Assembly: GCA_028288965.1 (NCBI GenBank)
Contig: JAQGHD010000025.1
Span: 1 to 63,161 of the forward strand
From: Candidatus Saccharimonadota bacterium
GTDB lineage: Bacteria > Patescibacteriota > Saccharimonadia > Saccharimonadales > JAQGHD01
Reading direction: 5' to 3'
Length of the DNA: 63,161 bases
The stretch's first letter is position 1, and every line of letters starts with the position of its first letter. The position numbers were made by a program, and so were the translations under genes. Below, piece by piece: positions 5,208-46,536 of this stretch. The notes under the pieces were generated by a model. The model was not told the DNA's origin. It was given only the letters and a program-made list of their open reading frames with translations, and did no database searches.

Positions 5208-5292
5208 GGGCGAGTGGCGGAACTGGTATACGCGCACGACTCAAAATCGTGTTCCTTACGGATTGAGGGTTCGATTCCCTCCTTGCCCACCA
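5208..5292 (+). tRNA. tRNA-Leu (anticodon CAA), type II with a long variable arm, CCA encoded.
   Basis: Acceptor stem GGGCGAG/CTTGCCC. D arm GTGGCGGAACTGGTATACGCGC. Anticodon stem-loop CACGA-CTCAAAA-TCGTG. Variable arm TTCCTTACGGATTGA. T arm GAGGGTTCGATTCCCTC. Folded by hand. Confidence 0.85.
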
Positions 5293-13066: not shown

Positions 13067-13156
13067 TGGCGGAGGGAGAGGGATTCGAACCCTCGAGAGA
13101 CTTGCGCCTCAACCTACTTTCCAAGCAGGCGCCATAGACCGCTAGGCGACCCCTCC
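13067..13156 (-). tRNA. tRNA-Ser (anticodon GGA), type II, CCA encoded.
   Basis: Acceptor GGAGGGG/TCCCTCC with a G-U closing pair. U8. 3-bp D stem. Anticodon stem-loop CCTGC-TTGGAAA-GTAGG. Long variable arm. T arm GAGGGTTCGAATCCCTC. Discriminator G. Confidence 0.8.
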
Positions 13157-23775: not shown

Positions 23776-23850
23776 TGGCTCCGGAGGCCGGATTCGAACC
23801 GGCAACCTTAGCGTTAACAGCGCTCTGCTCTACCGTTGAGCTACTCCGGA
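23776..23850 (-). tRNA. tRNA-Asn (anticodon GTT), CCA encoded.
   Basis: Acceptor TCCGGAG/CTCCGGA. U8. D arm GCTC-AACGGTA-GAGC. Anticodon loop CTGTTAA. T arm GCCGG-TTCGAAT-CCGGC. Discriminator G. Confidence 0.85.
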
Positions 23851-24006: not shown

Positions 24007-27000
24007 ATGAGGGTAAAAAAGCCGAACATAAACAAGGCGAGTATTGGTAAGCTATTAGATCAACTACGCCACTATTGGACGGCTACTGCGCTGCCCTTTC
24101 TCTTGAAAGCCTTCAAAAAATTCCGGCACCAGGGCATTCGGATCAGCAAACGTGTTGCCCGGTTTACCTGGAAGCATACCAAGCAGACTTCCCTCTTTTT
24201 GCATCGGCATGGTGCTAGGCGGCCGCATTCGTATCTGCGGAACAAATGGAAATGGTATGACCGGTGGCATGAATGGCAGTATCACCAGCATGTCCATACA
24301 GCTATTGCAGCTGTATATGTGCTTATTGTTGGCTCAATTATTTTTGTGGCCTATCAAAAAACTTTTGCTACTCCCGATCTAACTGATACCTGGGATTTCA
24401 CAGCTTCATCTAATTACACCTTTGATAGCGGTGCCGAAGCCAGCGGCAGTACCGCCCGGCTCAAGGCTCAAAACTATACGAGTGATAGCAACACCAAAGC
24501 CTTGTATCACTTTGATAGTAATTCTGGTACCACGGCCACCGATAGCTCAGTAAATGGTAATAATGCCACTACCACTGGCTCGCCTTCGTGGGTGGCGGGC
24601 CAACTCAATAATGCGATAAGTCTTAATGGTTCTACCCAGTGGTTGAGCGCCCCCGATACGGCCTCATTGTCACTGAGCCAGCCCAACACGCTGGAAGCTT
24701 GGGTAAAGTTTGGCTCCAGCTTTTCAGGCAGTAGTCACGATGGCGACCAGGTAATTTTAGACAAAGGTGCCTACAAACTGTATTACGATCACACCTCAGG
24801 CAAAATCAACTATGAAATGGCTAAGTCAACTGCCACCACCTGGACGGCTCGAGCCGGCAATGACATTAACGGCAGTTGGGATACCAGCGGCAAAGATTCC
24901 GTGCTGAGCCAAGCAGTCATTGGCAGCAATATTTATGCTGGGCTTGGCACTGGTAGTGGTGACGCCGAGGTCTGGAAATGGACTGGCAGTTCCTGGTCAA
25001 TAATTGGCGGTGACGGTATTAATTCCAGCTGGGATAAAAACCATGAAGCGGTTGATTCAATGTATGCCAACGGAACAATTTTGTACGTTGGGCTGGGATC
25101 AACCTTAAATGCTGATGCTGAAGTGTGGAGCTGCGATACTAGCACCAACTGCACCACCTGGACCAAGATTGGCGGTGACAATGTAAACAGTAGCTGGGGT
25201 GATACTTCCGATGTCTATTCTTTATGGTACGGCAACATAGGCGCCGGTAATTTCTTGTATGCCGGTCTCGGCAGCAGCGCTGTTAATGGTGATGGTGATT
25301 TGTGGCGCTGCACGCCATCTGGCGCAACGTGTTCTACGTGGACAAAAATCGGTGGCGATAACCTCAACAGCGGTTGGGCAAACGGCAACGAAGCAGTCTA
25401 TGCCATTAACTACGATGGTACGGGCCTGGTGGTCGGCCTGGGTAACACCGGAACTGATGGCCAAGTGTATCGCTGGAACGGCACGGCTTGGACAAAAATG
25501 GGCGGCGGCGGTTCAGCCGTCAATGCCAGCTGGAGTTCAGGTATTAATTCTGTCCACGCTATCACGGTGTTTGGAGGTAATATCTACGTTGCTACAGGTG
25601 ATGATAACGGTGATGCCGAAATTTGGAAGAGTTCTACCGCCGCCTATAGCTGGGTCAAAATTGGTGGCGACAATATCAACTCCGGCTGGGCTGGGACCAC
25701 CGATAAAATAGCCTATAGCCTAGCCAATGACGGCACCAACGTTTACGCCGCCGTTGATACGACAGCCTGGAAATGGAATGGGACGGCCTGGTCGCAAATA
25801 GCTGGTGGTAGTATAAATGGCAGCTGGAGTGCCGGGTTATCACTCAACTCGTTGATGTTTAGTGGTTCAACTCTGTACGGTGGGCTCCATGATGCCTTGA
25901 CGTTTGGGACATATGGTACTTCTGGAGAGTGGACCTTCAACGGTACGACTTGGACGAAAATTGGTGGTGATTACATGAATAACAGCTGGTCGTCCGAAGT
26001 GTATAGCCAAGTAAGCAGCATGGCGACCTATAACGGTAGTTTGTATGCCGGCGTCAGCACCCATGGTGGTACCCTGGGTAAATCAAACGTCTTTAAGTAC
26101 GACGGTACCAGCTGGAGCGTGGTGGGCGGTAGCGGACTGAATTCCTCGTGGACAAGTGGCTTTGGTGGTTTGTACGGCGAGATCTATGCCTTGATAGAGT
26201 ATAAAGGCAATCTGTATGCGGGTATCTCTGGTGCAAACGGTGGCAGCGGCGAGCTATGGAAATACGATGGTACTACCTGGAGCAAAGTTGGCGGCGATGG
26301 CGTTAACTCCAGCTGGGCCGATCTTACTTATGAATCGGTACAATCCTTGGCGGTGTATAACGGCAACTTATATGCTGGATTGGGAATAAGTCCTGGTGAT
26401 GCTGAGCTATGGAAATACGACGGCACCACCTGGAGCAGAGTTGGTGGCGATGGCATTAACTCCAGCTGGACAAATCTTACCTATCAGACAGTGCAGTCGC
26501 AGACAGTCTATAAGGGAAAGCTGTATGTGGGACTGGGTAATGGCAGCAATACGTTGGCCAGAGTTTGGAGCTATGACGGTACAAACTGGGTAGCGGTCGG
26601 CGGTAATTCTATTAACAGCTCGTGGGGATCTGGCCCAACGGAAGTTGACTCACTAGTAGCCTATAACGGCGACTTGTATGCTGGTTTGGGTAGCTCGCTA
26701 GCTACCGGTAGTACTGAAGTCTGGAAATACAATGATGTCAGTAACACGTGGACACGCATTGGCGGTGCCAGCCTGAATGCCAGTTGGTCGTCCGCCAGTA
26801 CCTATATCAGCGTAAAAGCCCTAACGGTTTATAATGGTGAATTATATGCCGGCATAGGCGGCTCGACTATTAACAGTGATGGTTCAGTTTGGAAATACAA
26901 TGGTTCAGTGTGGAGCCAAGTCGGCGGTAATGATCTAAACGGCGGCTGGTCCACAACGGATAATCTTGAATCGATAGGCACCTTAACCGTATTTAATGGC

Positions 27001-30000
27001 AAGCTATACAGCGGTTATTACACGTCCGGGTCTACAACTATACCGAGTTTTATTTGGTCTTATGGTGATAATAACTCTTTACAATCTGCGGCCACCACTC
27101 AAGACACCAATTGGCACCACATAGCCGCAACCAACGACGGGGTAACCATGAAGATTTACCTTGATGGTGTTGAAAATGCTTCTGGATCAAGTGCCAGCTC
27201 AATGCCGGATAACAATTTGCCGCTGCTTCTCGGTAAAGGTTACGGCTCGAGTGGCGCCGGCCTGGGGAGCGGCCCCCTCACGGGCAATCTAGATGAAATA
27301 AGAATTAGTGATATTGCTCGAACGAGCTTTACCACCCTGCCCTTTAGTTCTACCGAACAGGCCGTGACGCTTAATTCAGCGGTGCGAACCTCTGGGGTGA
27401 ACCACTGGGACACCTGGGCCGACAGCGAAACGGCCAATGGCGGGACAATTACCTATCGCTTATCCGATGATGGTGGCACAACCTGGAAATACTGGAACGG
27501 CAGTGCTTGGGCTGCTTCTAGCGGATTAACTTTGGCTAGCACTGTGTCGGTTATCAACACGCACATTGCTACCTTCCCAGCTACTTTTAGCGGCATTAAA
27601 TGGCAGGCGGTATTAAAGGGCAACGGCAACCAACAGGTGACGCTCAATTCCACGACCTTGCAGTCTACCTCCGATACGACGCCGCCAGCTACCAATGCCA
27701 GCGCCATTACTGCCCTTAAAGCTTTTGGCGGTTCCTCGTTGGTTACTGACGCCTGGACCAACGGCAGTTCGCCGTACTTTGCTTGGACGGCTGGCAGTGA
27801 TGCCGGCTCGGGCGTCAAAGGCTATTGCTTGTACTTGGGACAGGATAACACTGCCGATCCGGTCACTACCGCCGGGCTATTGGGTGCCAGCCCAGTTAGC
27901 ACCGGTGGACACTGTCAATTTATGGTCAGTGGTACCAATATTAATACGGCCACAGCCGGCTACCTGGCGTCTGCTTTAACTAGTTCCAACTCTCGCTACT
28001 ACCTGCGCATTAAAGCCATGGATAATGCTGGCAATACCTTTGGTACTGCCACTAGTTTTTCATTCTTTTTTGATAACACGCTGCCGGCTAACCCCGCCTT
28101 TATAACTGGACCATCAGGTTTTGTGAACACCAAGGCAGTGACGTTAACCTGGGCAACAGCTGGAGGCAATGCACCAAGCGATGGCAATTCCGGCCTGGCC
28201 GGCCTGCAATACCGGGTCAATAATGGCACCTGGTATGGTGACTCGCACAGCGGGGCCGGCGATATAAATGATCTGCTAACCAACGATGGCTCCTATACGT
28301 TTATCAGTAATCCTGATTTTCCGAATCTCAATGAGGGGGTTAACACTATTTACTTCCGTACCTGGGACGTAGCCGGCAATGTCACCACCAGTTATGTCAC
28401 TGCCGCCGTTAAGATCAACACCACCGGAGCACCGAGTGAACCGCAAAACGTCACCGCAACGCCCGGAACCAATACCACCAACAGTTTTGCTTTTAGTTGG
28501 AGTGCTCCGGCCACTTTTGTAGGGGATGTTAATAACCTGACCTACTGCTATACCATTAATACGTTGCCTTCACCCAGTACCTGTACCTTTACGGCCGGCG
28601 GGGTTACCAGTTTGAGCGCCAATGCCTACGCCACGCAACCAGGCACCAACACCTTTTACATTGCTGCCAAGGACGAATCAAGCAATATTAATTATGCTAG
28701 TTATGGGACGGCTACCTTTACGGCCACTACCGTAGCGCCTGGCATGCCGCTGAACGCCAACATCACTGATGTTTCTCTGAGGGCAACCAGCAGTTGGCGC
28801 TTGGCAATTAGCTGGGATCCTCCGGCCAGCGTTGGCGATGGCGTAGCCAGTTATAAAATATATCGTTCCACAAACAACGTAAGCTTTACGCCAATTGCCA
28901 CAATTAGCGGCACCAGCTACATCGATACCGGCCTTAGCCAAATTCATTACTATTACAAGATTAAAGCTTGTGATAGCACCAATAATTGTGGGGCCGATAG
29001 TTCGGTAGTAGACGAGACTCCCACCGGCCGCTACACTTCCCCGGCTAATCTTACTGGCCAACCAGCCGTCAGCGATGTAACGACCCGTAAAGCAACTATT
29101 AAGTGGAACACCGACCGAAGCAGTGACTCGCGTGTCGCCATCGGCACCAGTAGCGGCCACTATAGCCCGTCTGAAGTGGCTGTCTCGACTCAGGTCACCG
29201 AACACGTTGTTCAGCTTGATAATTTAAGCGCCGGTACCACTTACTACGTCAAAGCCAAATGGACAGACGAAGATGGCAATACCGGCAACAGCCAAGAAGT
29301 CAGCTTTACGACTGATGGCGCGCCGGTTATTAAAGAAGTCAGCGCCATTAAGGTGGGCCTAAATTCCGCGGTTATTCAGTTTACTGCTAAAAATGCCACA
29401 AAAGTGGGCTTGTCATTTGGTAAGTCTGATTCGTTCGGCGGTCTAAAAACGGTCAATACTTCACTTACCGAGTCAACCTATACTGTGGAGCTTGATGGGC
29501 TCGATGATGGAGCCAAATACTTCTATAAACTGACCGCCTACGATACCGAAAGCTTCCCCTATGATGGCAACGTCTTCACTTTTACCACGCCGCCGCGGCC
29601 GCATATCACCAACCTCCGCTTCCAGCCAGTTGATGGCGAACCAACCAGCACTCAAAAAGTAACCTGGGACACCAACGTAGCATCCAACTCAGTCATTACC
29701 TACGGCAAAGTCGGCACCAATGGGACGGATGTCCTAGTCTCGTCCATGGTGACGGCGCACGAGGTGGTTATTAGTGGGCTCGAGGACAACAGCGACTATT
29801 TCTTACTGGCTCAATCTCGCGATGTTGATGGCAACCTAGCGGTGTCTGACAAGCAAATTTTTAAAACGGCGCTCGATACACGTCCGCCCAAAATCACCGA
29901 TATTACGGTGGAGGCAACCATTAAGGGCACTGGGGCTGAAGCCCGTGGTCAGGTGGTTGTTTCCTGGAAGACAGATGAACCCTCAACCAGCCAAGTTGCT

Positions 30001-30246
30001 TACGGCGAAGGTTCAAACTCGGTGAACCTCCCCAATAAAACCAGTGAAGACAGTGGCTTGGCCACCCAGCACATTGTGATCGTTTCCGATTTGCCCACGT
30101 CTAAGGTGTACACTATGCAACCAGTGTCCAAGGATAAAGCCGGCAACGCCGCTAAGGGTGCTGGCCAATCGGCCATTATCGGGCGGGCCAGTGACAACGT
30201 GCTGACTATTGTGCTCAACACGCTCAGAAAGGTTTTTGGATTTTAG
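24007..30246 (+). CDS. Giant (2079 aa) membrane-anchored surface protein. It has two LamG/ConA-like lectin domains, about 20 tandem ~45-aa repeats (W-x-IGGD-x-NSSW...LYAGLG...AEVWKYDG), and a C-terminal array of Fn3-like domains. Putative adhesin.
   Basis: N-terminal cytoplasmic region then a TM segment (VHTAIAAVYVLIVGSIIFVAY). A 'LDEIRISD' LamG-like motif. The repeated 'TWTKIGGDN(I/V)NSSW' units are read directly from the translation. Confidence 0.8.
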   Translation: MRVKKPNINKASIGKLLDQLRHYWTATALPFLLKAFKKFRHQGIRISKRVARFTWKHTKQTSLFLHRHGARRPHSYLRNKWKWYDRWHEWQYHQHVHTAIAAVYVLIVGSIIFVAYQKTFATPDLTDTWDFTASSNYTFDSGAEASGSTARLKAQNYTSDSNTKALYHFDSNSGTTATDSSVNGNNATTTGSPSWVAGQLNNAISLNGSTQWLSAPDTASLSLSQPNTLEAWVKFGSSFSGSSHDGDQVILDKGAYKLYYDHTSGKINYEMAKSTATTWTARAGNDINGSWDTSGKDSVLSQAVIGSNIYAGLGTGSGDAEVWKWTGSSWSIIGGDGINSSWDKNHEAVDSMYANGTILYVGLGSTLNADAEVWSCDTSTNCTTWTKIGGDNVNSSWGDTSDVYSLWYGNIGAGNFLYAGLGSSAVNGDGDLWRCTPSGATCSTWTKIGGDNLNSGWANGNEAVYAINYDGTGLVVGLGNTGTDGQVYRWNGTAWTKMGGGGSAVNASWSSGINSVHAITVFGGNIYVATGDDNGDAEIWKSSTAAYSWVKIGGDNINSGWAGTTDKIAYSLANDGTNVYAAVDTTAWKWNGTAWSQIAGGSINGSWSAGLSLNSLMFSGSTLYGGLHDALTFGTYGTSGEWTFNGTTWTKIGGDYMNNSWSSEVYSQVSSMATYNGSLYAGVSTHGGTLGKSNVFKYDGTSWSVVGGSGLNSSWTSGFGGLYGEIYALIEYKGNLYAGISGANGGSGELWKYDGTTWSKVGGDGVNSSWADLTYESVQSLAVYNGNLYAGLGISPGDAELWKYDGTTWSRVGGDGINSSWTNLTYQTVQSQTVYKGKLYVGLGNGSNTLARVWSYDGTNWVAVGGNSINSSWGSGPTEVDSLVAYNGDLYAGLGSSLATGSTEVWKYNDVSNTWTRIGGASLNASWSSASTYISVKALTVYNGELYAGIGGSTINSDGSVWKYNGSVWSQVGGNDLNGGWSTTDNLESIGTLTVFNGKLYSGYYTSGSTTIPSFIWSYGDNNSLQSAATTQDTNWHHIAATNDGVTMKIYLDGVENASGSSASSMPDNNLPLLLGKGYGSSGAGLGSGPLTGNLDEIRISDIARTSFTTLPFSSTEQAVTLNSAVRTSGVNHWDTWADSETANGGTITYRLSDDGGTTWKYWNGSAWAASSGLTLASTVSVINTHIATFPATFSGIKWQAVLKGNGNQQVTLNSTTLQSTSDTTPPATNASAITALKAFGGSSLVTDAWTNGSSPYFAWTAGSDAGSGVKGYCLYLGQDNTADPVTTAGLLGASPVSTGGHCQFMVSGTNINTATAGYLASALTSSNSRYYLRIKAMDNAGNTFGTATSFSFFFDNTLPANPAFITGPSGFVNTKAVTLTWATAGGNAPSDGNSGLAGLQYRVNNGTWYGDSHSGAGDINDLLTNDGSYTFISNPDFPNLNEGVNTIYFRTWDVAGNVTTSYVTAAVKINTTGAPSEPQNVTATPGTNTTNSFAFSWSAPATFVGDVNNLTYCYTINTLPSPSTCTFTAGGVTSLSANAYATQPGTNTFYIAAKDESSNINYASYGTATFTATTVAPGMPLNANITDVSLRATSSWRLAISWDPPASVGDGVASYKIYRSTNNVSFTPIATISGTSYIDTGLSQIHYYYKIKACDSTNNCGADSSVVDETPTGRYTSPANLTGQPAVSDVTTRKATIKWNTDRSSDSRVAIGTSSGHYSPSEVAVSTQVTEHVVQLDNLSAGTTYYVKAKWTDEDGNTGNSQEVSFTTDGAPVIKEVSAIKVGLNSAVIQFTAKNATKVGLSFGKSDSFGGLKTVNTSLTESTYTVELDGLDDGAKYFYKLTAYDTESFPYDGNVFTFTTPPRPHITNLRFQPVDGEPTSTQKVTWDTNVASNSVITYGKVGTNGTDVLVSSMVTAHEVVISGLEDNSDYFLLAQSRDVDGNLAVSDKQIFKTALDTRPPKITDITVEATIKGTGAEARGQVVVSWKTDEPSTSQVAYGEGSNSVNLPNKTSEDSGLATQHIVIVSDLPTSKVYTMQPVSKDKAGNAAKGAGQSAIIGRASDNVLTIVLNTLRKVFGF

Positions 30247-38862: not shown

Positions 38863-39201
38863 GTGATGAATAAAGCCGCCGTAAAGCCGACGACTAAGGG
38901 AGAAAAAACCCCACCATCGACTTGGGATGGGTGGGTAGTAGCGCTGCAGCTGCTGGATACCACCTGGCGGGTAGCACTGCCTATTTTGTTACTAAGTTAC
39001 GGCGGCACTCGACTGGATCGTCACTGGCACTCGACGCCGCTGTTGAGTCTGATTGGCTTTTTTGTATCACTGCCGCTAGCCGTGCTGCTGGTGTACCGTC
39101 AGATCAAAGCTGCTTATCCGGACGCTTTTAAGACCGGCCAGACCGGCGCGGCAGACCCGTCCAGCAAGTCGGCGAGTAAGACCAAAGGGGGCAAAAAATA
39201 A
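38863..39201 (+). CDS. AtpZ/AtpI-like small membrane protein preceding the F0 genes.
   Basis: Two TM segments. Position immediately 5' of atpB. Confidence 0.5.
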   Translation: MMNKAAVKPTTKGEKTPPSTWDGWVVALQLLDTTWRVALPILLLSYGGTRLDRHWHSTPLLSLIGFFVSLPLAVLLVYRQIKAAYPDAFKTGQTGAADPSSKSASKTKGGKK

Positions 39202-40034
39202 TGTTCCTGGCCAAAAGCATTGAAGTCATTCCGCACGCCGAAAAGCTATTTACCGTCGGCGGCATTGGCATCAGCAACTCAATGTTGCTGGGCTGGGTGG
39301 TCAGTGCCGGGCTGGTTATTACGTTTATTGTGGCCGCCAAGCGCATCAAAATTACCAGCGGTGGCAAGGGTCTGACCATTTTGGAATTTTTGGTAGAGTT
39401 TATCACTAATCTAGCGGCCGACATCATGCACGACCGCAAAAAAGCCGCCAAATACGCGCCGTTTTTGGTGACGTTGTTTTGCTTTATTATCTTTAATAAC
39501 TGGGCCGGGTTATTGCCTGGTGTGGGCAGTATTCACTATCACGGCCTGCCGCTGCTGCGGGCTTGGACATCAGACCTTACTGGCACCCTAGCGCTGTCGG
39601 TTTTCTCGATTATTTTGATTCAAATTTATACGGTGCGGGAATTAAAAGTGGGTGGTTATCTCAAGCACTATTTTTCCGACAAACCCTGGAATCCCATCAA
39701 CTTGTTCGTGGGGCTGCTGGAAGTGCTCGGTGAGTTTACGCGTATGGCCAGCCTGGCGCTGCGTTTGTTCGGTAATATTTTTGCCGGCGAGGTGCTGCTA
39801 ATTGTGCTGTCATCCATCACCAGTTTTGGCTCCCCAGCGGCTACCCTGCCCTTTATATTTATGGAATTATTTGTGGGCTTTATCCAAGCCTATGTCTTTA
39901 CCACCTTGGTTATTGTCTACCTAACACTGGCTACCACCAGCCACGATGAAGAGCCTGAAACAGATCACTCCACCGTTGAATCTAAACCTGCAGCCCCCGC
40001 CCTGGCAGCTTCCGGCTCGCATTTAGGAGAGTGA
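39201..40034 (+). CDS. atpB: ATP synthase F0 subunit a.
   Basis: 'LRLFGNIFAGE' with the essential-Arg motif. Confidence 0.85.
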   Translation: MFLAKSIEVIPHAEKLFTVGGIGISNSMLLGWVVSAGLVITFIVAAKRIKITSGGKGLTILEFLVEFITNLAADIMHDRKKAAKYAPFLVTLFCFIIFNNWAGLLPGVGSIHYHGLPLLRAWTSDLTGTLALSVFSIILIQIYTVRELKVGGYLKHYFSDKPWNPINLFVGLLEVLGEFTRMASLALRLFGNIFAGEVLLIVLSSITSFGSPAATLPFIFMELFVGFIQAYVFTTLVIVYLTLATTSHDEEPETDHSTVESKPAAPALAASGSHLGE

Positions 40035-40080
40035 TGTGTTAGAAATAATAACGATTAAGAAGTAACTAAAGGAGTTTTAT

Positions 40081-40329
40081 ATGTTACATCAAGTATTCGC
40101 AGCGGCGACTGATTCGCCCCTCGCTAACCCAACATTTGTTAAAGGAATGGCCATTGCTATCGGCACCATTATGCCAGCTTTTTCCTTAGGTTGGATTGGC
40201 AGTAGTGTTATGAAAGCCATTGGCCGCAACCCAGAAGTTGCCGGGCGTATTTTGCCAATTCTGCTGATTAGCGCAGCCTTGGTGGAAGCCATTGCTATTT
40301 ACGTGCTGGTTGTCGTCTTTACCGTTTAA
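40081..40329 (+). CDS. atpE: ATP synthase F0 subunit c.
   Basis: 82-aa two-helix hairpin with the conserved carboxylate in 'AALVEAIAIY'. Confidence 0.85.
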   Translation: MLHQVFAAATDSPLANPTFVKGMAIAIGTIMPAFSLGWIGSSVMKAIGRNPEVAGRILPILLISAALVEAIAIYVLVVVFTV

Positions 40330-40345
40330 TAAATCTGGAGTCTAG

Positions 40346-40894
40346 GTGATAGAAATGTTTACAGCCGCTAGTCATGGGTTTGCCGCCGCCGGTTCGGGCG
40401 GTCTAGCCACGCTGGGCATTGACGTCAAAGCGCTGATCTTACAGATCCTGACCTTTGTCATTGTCTTTTGGCTGCTCAAAAAGTTTGCTCTCACTAAAAT
40501 CATCAAGACCTTAGAGGACCGCCGCGAAACCATAGACAAAGGTGTGACGCTCGGTCAGGAGATGGAAGTGGCCAAAGCCCAGTTGGAAGAGCAAGTCAAA
40601 GTCCGTTTGCGCCAGGCGCGTGCCGAGGCCGATGAGATTTTGGCCAAAGCCCGAGCAGAAGCCAGTGAGGTGCTCAAGGCAGCTGAGATTGATGCCACGC
40701 GTAAGGCGGATAATTTGGTGGCTGACGCCAAGGCCCGCATAGCAGATGAGGTCAAGCAGGCTCGCCGCCAGCTGGAGCAAGAAATGCTGGATCTAGTGGC
40801 CGAAGCGACCGAGGTTATCATCGAGGAAAAACTTGATCCTAAAAAAGACCAAACGCTGATTGATAAGGCGCTGCGCCTGGTGAGGGCCAAATGA
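40346..40894 (+). CDS. atpF: ATP synthase F0 subunit b.
   Basis: Single N-terminal TM plus a long charged helix. Operon position. Confidence 0.75.
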   Translation: MIEMFTAASHGFAAAGSGGLATLGIDVKALILQILTFVIVFWLLKKFALTKIIKTLEDRRETIDKGVTLGQEMEVAKAQLEEQVKVRLRQARAEADEILAKARAEASEVLKAAEIDATRKADNLVADAKARIADEVKQARRQLEQEMLDLVAEATEVIIEEKLDPKKDQTLIDKALRLVRAK

Positions 40895-41280
40895 GCAAGA
40901 TTAGCCGCAAAGAATTAGCCGGTGCCGTTTTGAGTTTGCTGGACGCTGGCAAAAGCCCGGCCGTTGTGGCCCAGCAAATCGCCGAATACCTAGTGGCCGA
41001 ACGCCGCACCACTGAACTCACTGCTCTAATGCGTGAGGTAGAAAATTTGCGCTTTGAGCGCAGTGGCGTTTTGGAAGCCGAGGTGTCCAGTGCGCACGAA
41101 CTAACCCCAGCGCTGCAGCAGGAAATAAAAGACCTGTTCCAGGCCAAGCACACCCTGCTGGATTACACCCAAGACGCCGAACTTATTGGTGGCATGCGGG
41201 TGCGGACCATCGAACAACAACTAGATATCAGCGTGGAACATAAACTGAATCAATTAAAGCACGCCAACGAGGGAGCATAG
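40891..41280 (+). CDS. atpH: ATP synthase delta subunit (OSCP), unusually short at 129 aa.
   Basis: C-terminal '[25 protein letters not shown]' matches the delta C-terminal domain. Most of the N-terminal domain appears to be missing. Confidence 0.6.
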
Positions 41281-41287
41281 ACGAGCC

Positions 41288-42850
41288 ATGGCAAACGATT
41301 TATCAGTAAAAGAACTATCGGCCGACATTCGAGCGGCTATAGAAAAGCTCAAAACTCGGCCCGAAATTGAGTCCGTTGGCATTGTGACCCGTGTGGGTGA
41401 CGGCGTGGCCTGGATTTTTGGCCTTAAAAAGGCCGGTTATAACGAAATGCTCGAACTCGAGACTATCAACGGCGGCACGGTCACGGCCTTTGCCCTGAAC
41501 CTGGGCGAAGACGAAATTGGCTCGGTAATTTTGGGTGATGACACCAAAGTCCAAGCCGGCGCTACGGCCCGGCTAACCGGTAAAGTGCTAGAAGTGCCAG
41601 TCGGTCCGGAACTCGTGGGCCGCGTGGTCGACCCGCTAGGTAAACCCCTGGACGGCAAGGGGCCCATCAAAACCACCCAAACCGGCTTGATTGAACGAAC
41701 CGCTCCCGGCGTTATGGACCGCAAGAGCGTGCACGAACCGCTGATGACCGGCCTGATGGCCATTGACGCCATGGTACCCATCGGCCGTGGCCAACGCGAG
41801 CTACTCATCGGCGACCGCCAAACCGGTAAAACGGCTGTGGCGATCGATACCATGATCAACCAGCACCGCCAAAAAACTGGTGTGGTCAACATTTACGTAG
41901 CCATTGGCCAAAAGCTCAGCAAAGTATCGCGTATTGTGGAGCGGCTGCAACGCGAAGGTGTCATGGAGCAAACTATTGTCATCGCCACCAGTGCCGCCGA
42001 CCCCGCCAGCTTGCAATACCTGGCGCCTTACGCCGGGGCCACCATGGGCGAATATTTCCGCGACAACAAACAGCACGCCTTGATTATTTTTGATGACCTG
42101 TCCAAGCACGCCGTGGCCTACCGCCAAATGTCGCTGCTGCTGCGCCGACCACCGGGCCGCGAAGCCTACCCGGGTGATGTCTTTTACTTGCACTCTCGTT
42201 TGCTAGAGCGGGCTGCTAAGCTCAGTGACGATCTGGGTGCTGGCTCCCTAACGGCCCTGCCGATTATCGAAACTCAGGCTGGTGACATTAGCGCCTACAT
42301 CCCCACCAACGTGATCTCCATCACCGACGGCCAGATCTTTATGGAAACCAACCTGTTCTACCAAGGTATTCGCCCAGCTATTAGCGTGGGACTATCAGTT
42401 TCGCGTGTGGGTGGTGCCGCCCAAACCAAAGCCGTCAAAAGCGTGGCCGGCAGCCTGCGCGTTAACCTCGCCCAGTTCCGCGAACTAGCCGCCTTTGCCC
42501 AATTCTCGACCGATCTGGATGCTGAGACAAAGCACCGCATTGAGCGCGGTCAGCGCTTGACGGAACTACTCAAACAACCACAGTATTCGCCAATGGCTGT
42601 CTGGGAAATGTACGCCGTGCTACTAGCTGCCACCGAAGGTGCCTTTGACGCCGTTCCCCTGCCCAAAGTCAAAACCGCGCAAGCTGCCATATTGGGTGAA
42701 CTGCACAAAGAACACCGCCAAGAAGTAGAAACCATCAATACCGGCGCCGTACCCGATGAAAAAACTCAAAAGCTGATTCTAGACGTCGCCAAGCGCATCG
42801 CCGAAACCTATAAAGAAGAAGTTAAAGGTGAGGAGAAGGAAGGAATATAA
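41288..42850 (+). CDS. atpA: ATP synthase alpha subunit.
   Basis: 'GDRQTGKTA' P-loop. Full-length alpha. Confidence 0.95.
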
Positions 42851-43191
42851 TGGTAAATCGTACATCCGCAGAACAGGCACGAGTTGATGCAGAAATTATG
42901 GCCGTAGAGTCTGGGTTTGCTGAGCATTTTGCAGGTATGGATACCTATGCTTTTGTGGAAGAAGGTATTGCAATATTTAGAGTTGTTGCTGAAGGATTAC
43001 CCTCAGTAAATAAAGGCGCTGACCTAGCGTTGCAGGGGCTGCTAAATGTATTAGTAACGGGCGAGGCTCCTTATTCAAGTTTAGTTTTTGGTGGTAAAGC
43101 AGCTGCAGCTTGGCGGATGTATACTGCTGAACTCGTAAAACGCACTGCTGTACATAGCGGTAAAGAGTTTCGTGAGGTGCCGGTAGAATAA
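42850..43191 (+). CDS. Hypothetical 113-aa protein inserted between atpA and atpG and translationally coupled at both ends.
   Basis: TAATGG overlaps at both junctions. By eye its AT content is noticeably higher than the flanking atp genes. Confidence 0.5.
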   Translation: MVNRTSAEQARVDAEIMAVESGFAEHFAGMDTYAFVEEGIAIFRVVAEGLPSVNKGADLALQGLLNVLVTGEAPYSSLVFGGKAAAAWRMYTAELVKRTAVHSGKEFREVPVE

Positions 43192-44057
43192 TGGCTAACA
43201 CGATTACCCTCAAGCGCCGAATCAATTCGGTCCGTAACACCCGTCAGATTACCAAGGCTATGGAGCTAGTGGCCGCCAGCAAAATGCGCCGGGCTCAAGA
43301 GCATGCTCTGCGGACTCGAGATTTTTATACCCTAGCCCAGCAAATTCTGACGCGTTTGCGCCAACTGACTGATGTGACCAAGCATCCGCTGTACCGCCAG
43401 CAAAACGTCAAAACTCGCCTGCATATTTTAATTACCAGCGATCAAGGTTTGGCCGGGGCCTACGACGCTAATTTGCTCAAACAATTTAGCCAAGAGCTCC
43501 AGCAAGACCACAAAGACGGAGTCACCAGCCAAGTTATTAGCATCGGCCGCAAAGGCAGCAGCTTTGTTTCACGGCTTGAGGGCGTCGAGCTATTGGCCGC
43601 CTATCACCACTTTGCCGAGCAACCCACCGCTAACGACATTCGCCCTATCCTCAACACCATTGTTGGCCTGTTCATTACCAAAAAAGTTGATGCCGTAGAC
43701 GTTATTTATACCGATTACAAAACCAGCCTCAGCCAAATTGTTACGTCGCAACGACTGTTACCCGCCGCCTACCAAGATGTGCCAATCGAGCCGGATTTAG
43801 AGCAAGCTTTGTTTGAGCCATCGCCAGAAGCCGTGCTAGAAGCCATTACACTCCGGTTGATTGAGGCCCAGCTCAACCAGGCCTTCAGCGAAGCCCAAGC
43901 CAGCGAGCATTCCATGCGCATGATGGCCATGAAAAACGCTACTGATAACGCCAACGATCTGATAGATGATTTAACCCTGGCCTTTAACACGGCTCGCCAG
44001 GCGGCCATTACTCAAGAACTGGCCGAGATCACGGCTGGCGCGGAGGCCATTCAATGA
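43191..44057 (+). CDS. atpG: ATP synthase gamma subunit.
   Basis: 'ITKAMELVAASKMRRAQ' N-terminus and 'ITQELAEITAGAEA' C-terminus. Confidence 0.9.
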   Translation: MANTITLKRRINSVRNTRQITKAMELVAASKMRRAQEHALRTRDFYTLAQQILTRLRQLTDVTKHPLYRQQNVKTRLHILITSDQGLAGAYDANLLKQFSQELQQDHKDGVTSQVISIGRKGSSFVSRLEGVELLAAYHHFAEQPTANDIRPILNTIVGLFITKKVDAVDVIYTDYKTSLSQIVTSQRLLPAAYQDVPIEPDLEQALFEPSPEAVLEAITLRLIEAQLNQAFSEAQASEHSMRMMAMKNATDNANDLIDDLTLAFNTARQAAITQELAEITAGAEAIQ

Positions 44058-44341
44058 GCCTTGATCTCTTACCAGATATACACACGGTTACTTTCCATGT
44101 TGATACGTGGGAGCGCTACCAAGACCTGCTCGAAGAAGAAGCTAGTTTGCCGCCGATCGGTAGTGATGACGACCGGATTTCAGAACAAACCAGGCGCATT
44201 GGAGCTACTATAGTGAGGACTTACGCGGGTGTCCACCAGCTAGCTATCGACGAAATTGGCCGAGCTGTCGACAGGCGTCAGCGCACTGATTTTAATATCT
44301 GCATGAAAGATCAAATGGATGAAGAGGTCACCCGGGAATGA
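44054..44341 (+). CDS. Hypothetical 95-aa protein inserted between atpG and atpD.
   Basis: ATGA overlap with the atpG stop. No motif. Confidence 0.45.
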   Translation: MSLDLLPDIHTVTFHVDTWERYQDLLEEEASLPPIGSDDDRISEQTRRIGATIVRTYAGVHQLAIDEIGRAVDRRQRTDFNICMKDQMDEEVTRE

Positions 44342-44688
44342 CAGAGCAAACTCCTAAAAGCAGCGAACAGCGCTTGCACGATATAATAAAACGTGCGGCA
44401 GATGATACGCTAGAAGCTACCCGTACCAACCCCGTCACCGATACGTTTCTGGCCCTAAATGCAGCTCGCTTGGCTGTTCAGTATTTACTGGAGGAACTTC
44501 TTCTTGCTAAATCAGAAGAGATTACCGGCATTGGCGCCCATGGAGACATTTCACACCAAGGTAATTTTGCTCCTACCTCAGGTGCTGATTTATGGATGGC
44601 TCAAGGACACAGCCCTGAAGAAATAGCCGTCACTGGACAAGAATTAGGCTTAGAAGATGAAGTTATAGCAACCAGAATAGGAGAATAA
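44338..44688 (+). CDS. Hypothetical 116-aa protein inserted between atpG and atpD.
   Basis: ATGA overlap with the preceding ORF. Ends 3 nt before atpD. Confidence 0.45.
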   Translation: MTEQTPKSSEQRLHDIIKRAADDTLEATRTNPVTDTFLALNAARLAVQYLLEELLLAKSEEITGIGAHGDISHQGNFAPTSGADLWMAQGHSPEEIAVTGQELGLEDEVIATRIGE

Positions 44689-46089
<1,401 letters not shown>

Positions 46090-46095
46090 GCATTA

Positions 46096-46536
46096 ATGGC
46101 TGCCAATGATTTGATTCATTTTGAACTCGTTACCCTCGACGGCACCAAATTTGGTGAAGACGTCTATGAAGTTATCTTGCCGACGCCCGATGGTTACATT
46201 GGTGTACTGCCCCACCACATTCCGCTGGTGACCATAGCTTCGCCGGGTATTATTAGTATTCGCCGCAAGCCTGGCGACCGTGACGATCAAATGGAATACT
46301 ACGCTACCAATGGCGGTGCCATTGAAGTGCTTGGTAATGTTGTGCGGGTGTTGGTAGACGAAGCCGATCACGAAGCCGAGATAAACGAGCAAGAGGCCCA
46401 GAAGGCCTTTGAGCGCGCTCAAGAGCTCCGCGAACACGCCAAAGATCAAGTTTCACTCAATGAAGCCCAAAGTTTGATCGATCGCCAGGCGGTACGCCTG
46501 CAAGTGGCCGGGCTGCGTCGCCGCAAACGCCGCTGA
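46096..46536 (+). CDS. atpC: ATP synthase epsilon subunit.
   Basis: 'FELVTLDG...GVLPHHIPLVT' is the epsilon beta-sandwich N-terminus. Confidence 0.85.
   Translation: MAANDLIHFELVTLDGTKFGEDVYEVILPTPDGYIGVLPHHIPLVTIASPGIISIRRKPGDRDDQMEYYATNGGAIEVLGNVVRVLVDEADHEAEINEQEAQKAFERAQELREHAKDQVSLNEAQSLIDRQAVRLQVAGLRRRKRR

Follow-up and report, generated by a model that had tools for sequence, protein, structure and literature searches.

Lineage-restricted genes (ORFans) placed downstream of native operon genes and expressed from the native promoter were described by Price, Arkin and Alm (2006; PMC1480536), and the sdhCDAB-b0725-sucABCD cluster of E. coli is an example of an operon that contains such an ORFan (PMC1480536). 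The properties of ORFans used for comparison here are those of Daubin and Ochman (2004), to the extent that they are cited in PMC1480536. In this study, we analysed a contig of 63,161 bp (hereafter, the window) from a metagenome-assembled genome of Candidatus Saccharibacteria. The window carries a complete F-type ATP synthase operon on its plus strand. The operon has the canonical atpBEFHAGDC gene order apart from three additional open reading frames (ORFs), one between the genes for the F1 alpha and gamma subunits (ORF113) and two between those for gamma and beta (ORF95 and ORF116; Table 1). The atp operon is among the most conserved gene arrangements in bacteria, and the separation of the alpha, gamma and beta genes by extra genes was therefore unexpected. 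The host group consists of ultra-small, streamlined epibiotic bacteria.

A survey of related genomes and metagenomes revealed that the junctions between the F1 genes are filled repeatedly in this group. We fetched 160 loci around atpG, all of which are of the Saccharimonadales type, derive from metagenome assemblies and encode gamma subunits 49-70% identical to that of the window. When a junction with a gap of at least 150 nt was regarded as occupied, 43 of 150 atpA-atpG junctions (29%), 65 of 140 atpG-atpD junctions (46%) and 24 of 116 atpD-atpC junctions (21%) were occupied. The corresponding numbers for the upstream junctions were 0 of 48 for atpB-atpE (0%), 1 of 56 for atpE-atpF (2%), 1 of 104 for atpF-atpH (1%) and 0 of 107 for atpH-atpA (0%). 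At least one F1 junction is occupied in 84 of 154 loci, the other 70 having no junction gene, and the occupancies of the atpA-atpG and atpG-atpD junctions are correlated (odds ratio 7.8, p = 4e-6). A comparison of atp synteny among relatives had been proposed in the original prediction, which was made from the sequence of the window alone; the comparison located junction genes in the 84 loci, but the gene families are mostly not shared.

ORFs on the atp strand, often starting on the stop codon of the upstream gene, occupy these gaps from one end to the other. The atp strand is at least 85% stop-free in 127 of 131 gaps, compared with 57 for the reverse strand and none for shuffled sequences. 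Arranged in arrays of one to four small genes, the 156 junction ORFs have a median length of 101 amino acids (aa) and fall into 130 clusters, 109 of which are singletons. Their products are mostly acidic: the isoelectric point (pI) is below 5 in 73% and below 7 in 95% of the junction ORFs (below 5 in 10% of the window ORFs), the net charge is negative in 91%, and glutamate is enriched 2.3-fold. Almost none contains a membrane-like segment. The GC content at third codon positions (GC3) is lower than that of the flanking atp genes in 92% of 126 junction ORFs (mean difference, -0.13), with the values at first and second positions (GC1 and GC2) unchanged. A scan of 140 junction ORFs against Pfam, PADLOC, PHROGs and NCBIfam yielded one match, none of it from PADLOC, to a 23S-rRNA-IVS/Avd-type protein in locus L010 (PF05635, E = 3e-35; TIGR02436; phrog_3206, 'Avd protein of DGR'). 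This basic four-helix-bundle protein of 124 aa (pI 9.7) is encoded at an atpD-atpC junction (L010:3963-4337), and a 56-aa fragment of the same family is present at an atpG-atpD junction (L107:862-1032).

Judged from their sequence features, the three ORFs of the window are real protein-coding genes. In a codon model trained on the other genes of the window and compared with shuffled sequences and the five other frames, the three ORFs scored positive in the annotated frame only (0.22-0.33 bits/codon; z = 4.1-4.6 against shuffles), and all five other frames were negative. The atp genes scored 0.42-0.54 bits/codon in the same model. GC1 (0.61-0.64) and GC2 (0.39-0.43) are gene-like in all three ORFs, and all three products are acidic (ORF113, net charge -5 and pI 5.0; ORF95, -10 and 4.6; ORF116, -12 and 4.5). 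GC3 is 0.28 in ORF113, 0.34 in ORF116 and 0.49 in ORF95. The flanking F1 genes have values of 0.54-0.62, atpE has a value of 0.46, and the 71 ORFs of the window have a mean of 0.505 (standard deviation, 0.074); within this distribution, ORF113 has the lowest value and ORF95 an ordinary one. The atypical composition that the original prediction had ascribed to the ORFs, together with the GC3 comparison with the flanking atp genes that it suggested, therefore holds for ORF113 and ORF116 but not for ORF95. Its further suggestion that AT-richness marks a later insertion was not supported. Low GC3 is general among the junction genes and is commonly seen in lineage-restricted genes under weak constraint, so that it is by itself no proof of recent insertion; in addition, the ORF113 family is old at its junction, as described below. 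A 24-nt motif (AACTGGCCGAGATCACGGCTGGCG) near the 3' end of atpG is present in three copies (44254-44277, 44017-44040 and 43975-43998). The copy in ORF95 is 75% identical and lies in a different reading frame, and no other similarity at the DNA level connects an insert with a flanking atp gene; the sharing of this motif is probably due to chance.

The position of ORF113 exactly between atpA and atpG, with a TAATGG overlap at both ends, was as predicted. Of the ATGA overlaps that had been proposed to join ORF95 and ORF116 to their neighbours, those at the atpG/ORF95 and ORF95/ORF116 boundaries are present, but ORF116 and atpD are separated by 3 nt without overlap (TAA cgt ATG). A Shine-Dalgarno-like site is located 5-11 nt upstream of all five genes from ORF113 to atpD, within the preceding gene in each case. 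A consensus scan detected no plus-strand promoter-like or terminator-like site within 42850-44688, and no Rfam family was found in this interval. Apart from the functional TAATGG, no direct or inverted repeats flank the ORFs, and the window contains no paralogous DNA. The upstream part of the operon, from the atpI-like gene through atpB, atpE and atpF to atpH (38863-41280), contains no extra ORFs at its junctions, and the atpD-atpC junction, which is filled in about one-fifth of the related loci, is empty in the window (6 nt).

Table 1. Features of the ATP synthase operon, its junctions and other parts of the window
Feature	Coordinates	Strand	Remarks
atpI-like gene	38863-39201	+	112 aa, basic; PF09527 match (ATPase_gene1, AtpI/AtpZ-like putative F0F1-ATPase subunit); directly upstream of atpB and overlapping its start
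atpB	39201-40034	+	
atpE	40081-40329	+	
atpF	40346-40894	+	
atpH (short delta/OSCP)	40891-41280	+	129 aa; PF00213; Pfam match limited to profile positions 47-170 of 172
atpA (F1 alpha)	41288-42850	+	520 aa; 79-81% identical to atpA of L161/L162
Shine-Dalgarno-like run for ORF113	42830-42844	+	GAGGAGAAGGAAGGA; in the 3' end of atpA
TAATGG	42848-42853	+	atpA stop/ORF113 start, one-base overlap
ORF113 (JWS12_819)	42850-43191	+	113 aa; exactly between atpA and atpG
Shine-Dalgarno-like site for atpG	43174-43179	+	GAGGTG; inside ORF113
TAATGG	43189-43194	+	ORF113 stop/atpG start, one-base overlap
atpG (F1 gamma)	43191-44057	+	288 aa; complete PF00231 match
Shine-Dalgarno site for ORF95	44042-44046	+	GGAGG; inside atpG
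ATGA overlap	44054-44057	+	atpG/ORF95
ORF95 (JWS12_821)	44054-44341	+	95 aa; first of two between atpG and atpD
ATGA overlap	44338-44341	+	ORF95/ORF116
ORF116 (JWS12_822)	44338-44688	+	116 aa; second of two between atpG and atpD
Shine-Dalgarno site for atpD	44679-44683	+	AGGAG; encoded by the last ORF116 codons (ATA GGA GAA TAA)
atpD (F1 beta)	44692-46089	+	465 aa; 84% identical to atpD of L161
atpC (F1 epsilon)	46096-46536	+	
2079-aa ORF	24007-30246		Laminin_G_3, fibronectin type III and purple-acid-phosphatase N-terminal domains
tRNA gene (Rfam)	5208-5289	+	
tRNA gene (Rfam)	13070-13156	-	
tRNA gene (Rfam)	23779-23850	-	

Comparison of close relatives indicated rapid turnover at the junctions. 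The ratio of non-synonymous to synonymous substitution rates (dN/dS) of the junction ORFs is below 1 wherever measurable and amounts to 0.1-0.36 in the informative pairs (those with unsaturated dS). Their dN is 2-8 times that of atpG; for example, junction ORFs are 45% and 60% identical where the gamma subunits are 90% identical. In L002 and L003, the gamma subunits of which are 89% identical, the post-gamma ORFs are unrelated, and a pre-gamma ORF is present in L002 only. L088, L089 and L161 share 77-82% identity in the DNA of their atp genes and display three different states at the alpha-gamma junction, with the similarity ending at gene boundaries. The closest pair, L153 and L154, is 95% identical over 6.8 kb, and an indel between them spans exactly the atpG-atpD junction (L153:3860-3915, L154:3860-4060), with the stop codon of atpG at one end and the Shine-Dalgarno site of atpD at the other. 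L154 contains a 65-aa post-gamma ORF at this position, and L153 contains a 42-nt spacer resembling a deletion remnant of that ORF. The alignment identifies this as a strain-level loss, by which the junction gene is seen to be dispensable in one strain pair.

When occupancy was mapped on a tree constructed from atpA, atpG and atpD, it was nearly as scattered as random. Occupancy of the atpA-atpG junction requires 22 parsimony steps for 28 occupied tips (shuffled mean, 24.9), and that of the atpG-atpD junction requires 27 steps for 50 occupied tips (shuffled mean, 35.3). Families that are shared between lineages keep the same junction, with two exceptions: a weak link between atpA-atpG and atpG-atpD ORFs of L002 and L003, and the Avd-type family of L010 and L107. 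Because members of shared families are always less similar to each other than the corresponding gamma subunits, vertical descent combined with fast evolution is sufficient to explain their distribution, and horizontal transfer between lineages, which we also considered, is not needed.

The prediction that the three ORFs carry no recognizable motif was confirmed, as none has a Pfam match or belongs to a described family. ORF113 does, however, have relatives. A word-indexed search of 5.8 billion proteins returned only ORF113 itself, but this was a false negative that was later corrected by an exhaustive HMMER search of 1.84 billion representatives, in which seven further clusters matched. A gene that the word-indexed search called an orphan was thus found to have a family, which is a methodological lesson for searches of this kind. 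The family comprises eight clusters with one or two members each. Five of the matching clusters are 45-53% identical to ORF113 (E = 5e-27 to 2e-15), and two are 33-34% identical (E of about 1e-7). The shared motifs are F[IV]EQGV[SA]IFR..EGIP.VNE and GEAP.P...RTA.AWRMYT. The structure predicted for ORF113 is that of a folded protein with four helices, and no significant match emerged when this model was used for fold searches. No member of the family was found on viral contigs. Long repeat proteins (TPR, HEAT and YDG; P0009 and P0012-14) also matched ORF113, but these matches were rejected, because the family profile no longer detects them.

Members of two clusters, P0007 (L161 and L162) and P0008 (L167-L169), have exactly the position that ORF113 has in the window, between atpA and atpG, and are followed by post-gamma ORFs of their own, which are unrelated; P0010 is probably located at this junction too. 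Because the family is common to lineages whose gamma subunits are only 55-61% identical, its sequences place it as an old resident of the alpha-gamma junction, where it is found in at least two, and probably three, other lineages. Between the window and L161, the dN/dS of the family is approximately 0.28, and dN is only 1.4 times that of gamma. Other members are encoded away from the atp genes. P0011 lies between fpg and holA on an 851-kb contig, and the neighbourhood of P0005 is quite unlike the atp operon; these non-atp neighbourhoods are those of L165/L166 and L170. P0004 and P0006 are on short contigs (1.2 and 1.8 kb; L164 and L163) that contain no atp gene. By eye, the end of the contig with P0004 (L164:1080-1159) looks like the reverse complement of the 3' end of 16S rRNA (…AAGGAGGTAATCC…), in which case P0004 would adjoin an rRNA operon and not the atp operon. 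In a rough tree, the atp-embedded and non-atp members are interleaved.

Two further ideas about ORF113 were rejected. The ORFs at the alpha-gamma junction do not constitute a single divergent family, as the hidden Markov model of the ORF113 family matches no other junction ORF, and the hhalign probability is at most 7%. Nor does ORF113 replace the missing N-terminal part of the delta subunit, which is equally short with or without junction genes; the short delta (median length, 133-134 aa in relatives of both kinds) is a trait of the clade.

ORF95 and ORF116 had no match in PADLOC, PHROGs or NCBIfam, matched only themselves in the word-indexed search and had no tblastn match in 50,697 phage records. 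No relative of either was detectable in the 170 fetched loci, the phage collection or profile-profile comparison. The orphan status of these two ORFs is provisional, because the word-indexed search had missed the relatives of ORF113. No strain-level relative of the window was found in the genome or metagenome collections, the best gamma identity being 70%. A resemblance of ORF95 residues 24-73 to the N-terminal barrel of alpha (tblastn, E = 0.015) was rejected, as clade-specific atpA and atpD profiles match neither ORF95 nor any other junction ORF.

The explanation that we favour, with a probability of about 0.55, is that the three ORFs are accessory genes, lacking a promoter of their own, that ride on the atp operon and whose products do not belong to the enzyme. 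ORF113, ORF95 and ORF116 would be transcribed together with the atp operon from the operon's own promoter. Each starts on or next to the preceding stop codon with its Shine-Dalgarno site in the 3' end of the preceding gene, and the 3' ends of ORF113 and ORF116 in turn contain the Shine-Dalgarno site of the following atp gene. These start/stop overlaps and nested Shine-Dalgarno sites suggest that translation passes from alpha to gamma to beta through the ORFs, which may thus be expressed by translational coupling. In the related genomes surveyed, the alpha-gamma, gamma-beta and beta-epsilon junctions constitute a hot spot that gathers small (median of approximately 100 aa), soluble, mostly acidic and lineage-restricted proteins, and these evolve several-fold faster than gamma under weak purifying selection and are frequently lost or replaced. 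Their reading frames may stay open in part because gamma and beta synthesis would become uncoupled if a stop codon or non-coding DNA arose at these junctions, and their acidity may reflect selection for products that are harmless and non-sticky at high expression. Our best guess is that the junction proteins are cytosolic accessory proteins unrelated to F1 catalysis, which gain strong constitutive expression from their position.

Several points weigh against this explanation. These genomes are streamlined (roughly 1 Mb), and a costly, highly expressed but useless protein should be purged from them. The persistence of junction genes in about half of the lineages, the purifying selection and the correlated occupancy hint at a real, and possibly shared, function. 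Position in the operon alone fails to explain the restriction to F1, because the beta-epsilon junction is less filled than the gamma-beta junction. Furthermore, since no relatives of ORF95 and ORF116 have been found, these two ORFs individually have no comparative support.

The same observations bear on the possibility that the ORFs encode lineage-specific accessory or regulatory proteins of F1, such as chaperones for the assembly of alpha, beta and gamma or inhibitors of ATP hydrolysis (like IF1, zeta, AtpTheta or the mycobacterial alpha C-terminal extension), which are encoded beside their targets. The restriction of junction genes to the three F1 junctions and not the Fo/stator junctions is consistent with such a role, as are the seemingly tight translational coupling to alpha, gamma and beta, the correlated occupancy of the three junctions, the maintenance of families at the same junction across lineages, the measurable purifying selection and the predicted four-helix fold of ORF113. 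However, the ORFs show no likeness to known ATP synthase accessory families or to atp gene profiles, the existence of 130 mutually unrelated families argues against a conserved binding function, and the length of delta is the same with or without junction genes. The proposal that the ORFs are novel ATP synthase subunits, which was made in the original prediction, is also at odds with the absence of junction genes from about half of the relatives, the unrelated ORFs of close genomes, the loss between the 95%-identical strains and the ORF113-family members encoded away from the atp genes. An accessory role at F1 is therefore rather unlikely. We consider it improbable that the F1 junctions form a dedicated hypervariable locus with acidic products that target F1 or work beside it, perhaps as rapidly diversifying regulators or as decoys shielding the ATP synthase against factors of host, competitor or phage origin; the correlated occupancy would then reflect multi-protein sets. 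It is similarly doubtful that the junction genes encode conflict proteins (immunity, anti-toxin-like decoy or anti-defence proteins) engaged in an arms race with host bacteria, competitors and phages, for which the atp operon would provide only strong constitutive expression. Their extreme diversity, fast evolution, strain-level presence or absence and arrays of one to four genes would fit this possibility. Acidity, which is common among immunity and DNA-mimic proteins, also fits, as does the 23S-rRNA-IVS/Avd-type four-helix-bundle gene held by two junctions elsewhere (L010 and L107). On the other side, neither the 5027 defence-system profiles nor the phage protein families gave a match, no similarity to phage or viral contigs and no cognate toxin gene nearby were detected, no secretion signals or membrane segments were found, and dN/dS does not exceed 1 in any measurable case.

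The adjacency of two small genes with an ATGA overlap had led to the prediction that ORF95 and ORF116 constitute a two-gene addiction module. A type II toxin-antitoxin or other selfish module, with ORF113 as a separate selfish insert, would also accord with the atypical GC3 of ORF113 and ORF116 and with the patchy distribution and fast turnover of junction genes. Nevertheless, this explanation is very improbable: the net charges of -10 and -12 leave no basic partner, four profile libraries revealed no toxin, antitoxin, defence or DNA-binding domain (HTH, RHH, AbrB), the consensus scan revealed no promoter-like site of the pair's own, ORF95 starts on the atpG stop codon, flanking repeats and mobility genes are absent, and no homologous pair was found anywhere searched. 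What stands of the broader idea of selfish cassettes sheltering in an essential operon is that the ORFs would ride on the operon and that junction genes turn over fast, but no mobility machinery, flanking repeats or phage link accompanies them. The opposite extreme, that the ORFs are non-coding spacers or decayed fragments of duplicated atp genes that are open by chance, could draw on the lack of homologues of ORF95 and ORF116 and on the weak resemblance of ORF95 to the alpha barrel. It has hardly any plausibility in view of the positive coding score in the annotated frame only, the gene-like GC1 and GC2, the Shine-Dalgarno sites and start/stop overlaps, the open atp strand in nearly all comparable gaps of relatives and in none when shuffled, the conserved ORF113 homologues with their low dN/dS, and the failure of atp gene profiles to match any junction ORF, including ORF95. 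We thus retain the explanation that the ORFs are accessory genes riding on the atp operon.

Elsewhere in the window, the 2079-aa ORF probably encodes a giant surface protein. The three tRNA genes listed in Table 1 were identified by Rfam, and no other RNA families were found in the window.

The F1 junctions of Saccharimonadales lend themselves, as a natural system, to the study of the entry, persistence and loss of new genes within an operon that is essential and translationally coupled, and they supply approximately 150 uncharacterised proteins whose expression context is very specific. Contact of these proteins with F1 would mean that ATP synthase in Patescibacteria is regulated at an additional, new level; without such contact, the junction genes would clearly exemplify hitchhiking on strong expression.

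Among known systems, type II toxin-antitoxin modules resemble ORF95 and ORF116 in that two small genes lie side by side and the stop codon of one overlaps the start codon of the next, but these two ORFs encode no toxin or antitoxin domain, are both acidic, have no promoter-like site of their own and are embedded among atp genes. Integron cassettes are also a poor match, since the ORFs directly adjoin or overlap the genes on either side, so that an attC site would not fit, and no bracketing inverted repeats are present; an integrase was not searched for specifically. The small factors of ATP synthase (IF1, zeta, AtpTheta, AtpI/AtpZ, Atp11/Atp12 and the mycobacterial alpha C-terminal extension) are comparable as small F1-associated proteins, some of which are encoded in or near atp operons. 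However, the window ORFs have no sequence, profile or fold similarity to them, and the known factors are conserved within clades, whereas the junction genes are hypervariable and dispensable. The 23S rRNA IVS/Avd family (PF05635, TIGR02436) lodges in highly expressed rRNA operons, and the junction genes are likewise small genes lodged inside a highly expressed essential operon. Unlike the member of this family in L010, which is basic, the window ORFs are acidic, and they match neither PF05635 nor TIGR02436.

The resemblance to ORFans in operons is closer. The window and junction genes share with them a short length, a higher AT content at third codon positions, fast evolution under purifying selection, restriction to close relatives and a location downstream of native genes. 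With respect to the ORFan properties, the ORFs of the window are restricted in distribution and short (95-116 aa), GC3 is low in two of the three, and the evolutionary rate was taken from the ORF113 family and from other junction genes. They differ from ORFans in operons in that the junction ORFs abut or overlap the stop and start codons of their neighbours and that the products are strikingly acid-biased. In contrast to isolated ORFan insertions, moreover, the same three junctions of one conserved essential operon have been filled repeatedly, by more than 100 unrelated families. Full-text searching of the literature found no description of this arrangement of the atp operon. The best-supported comparison is that the junction pattern represents an extreme, recurrent version of the ORFan-in-operon pattern of E. 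coli (PMC1480536). Although single ORFan insertions in operons are known, a hot spot that recurs in many related genomes, is limited to the three F1 junctions and encodes unrelated acidic proteins numbering more than 100 seems to be new.

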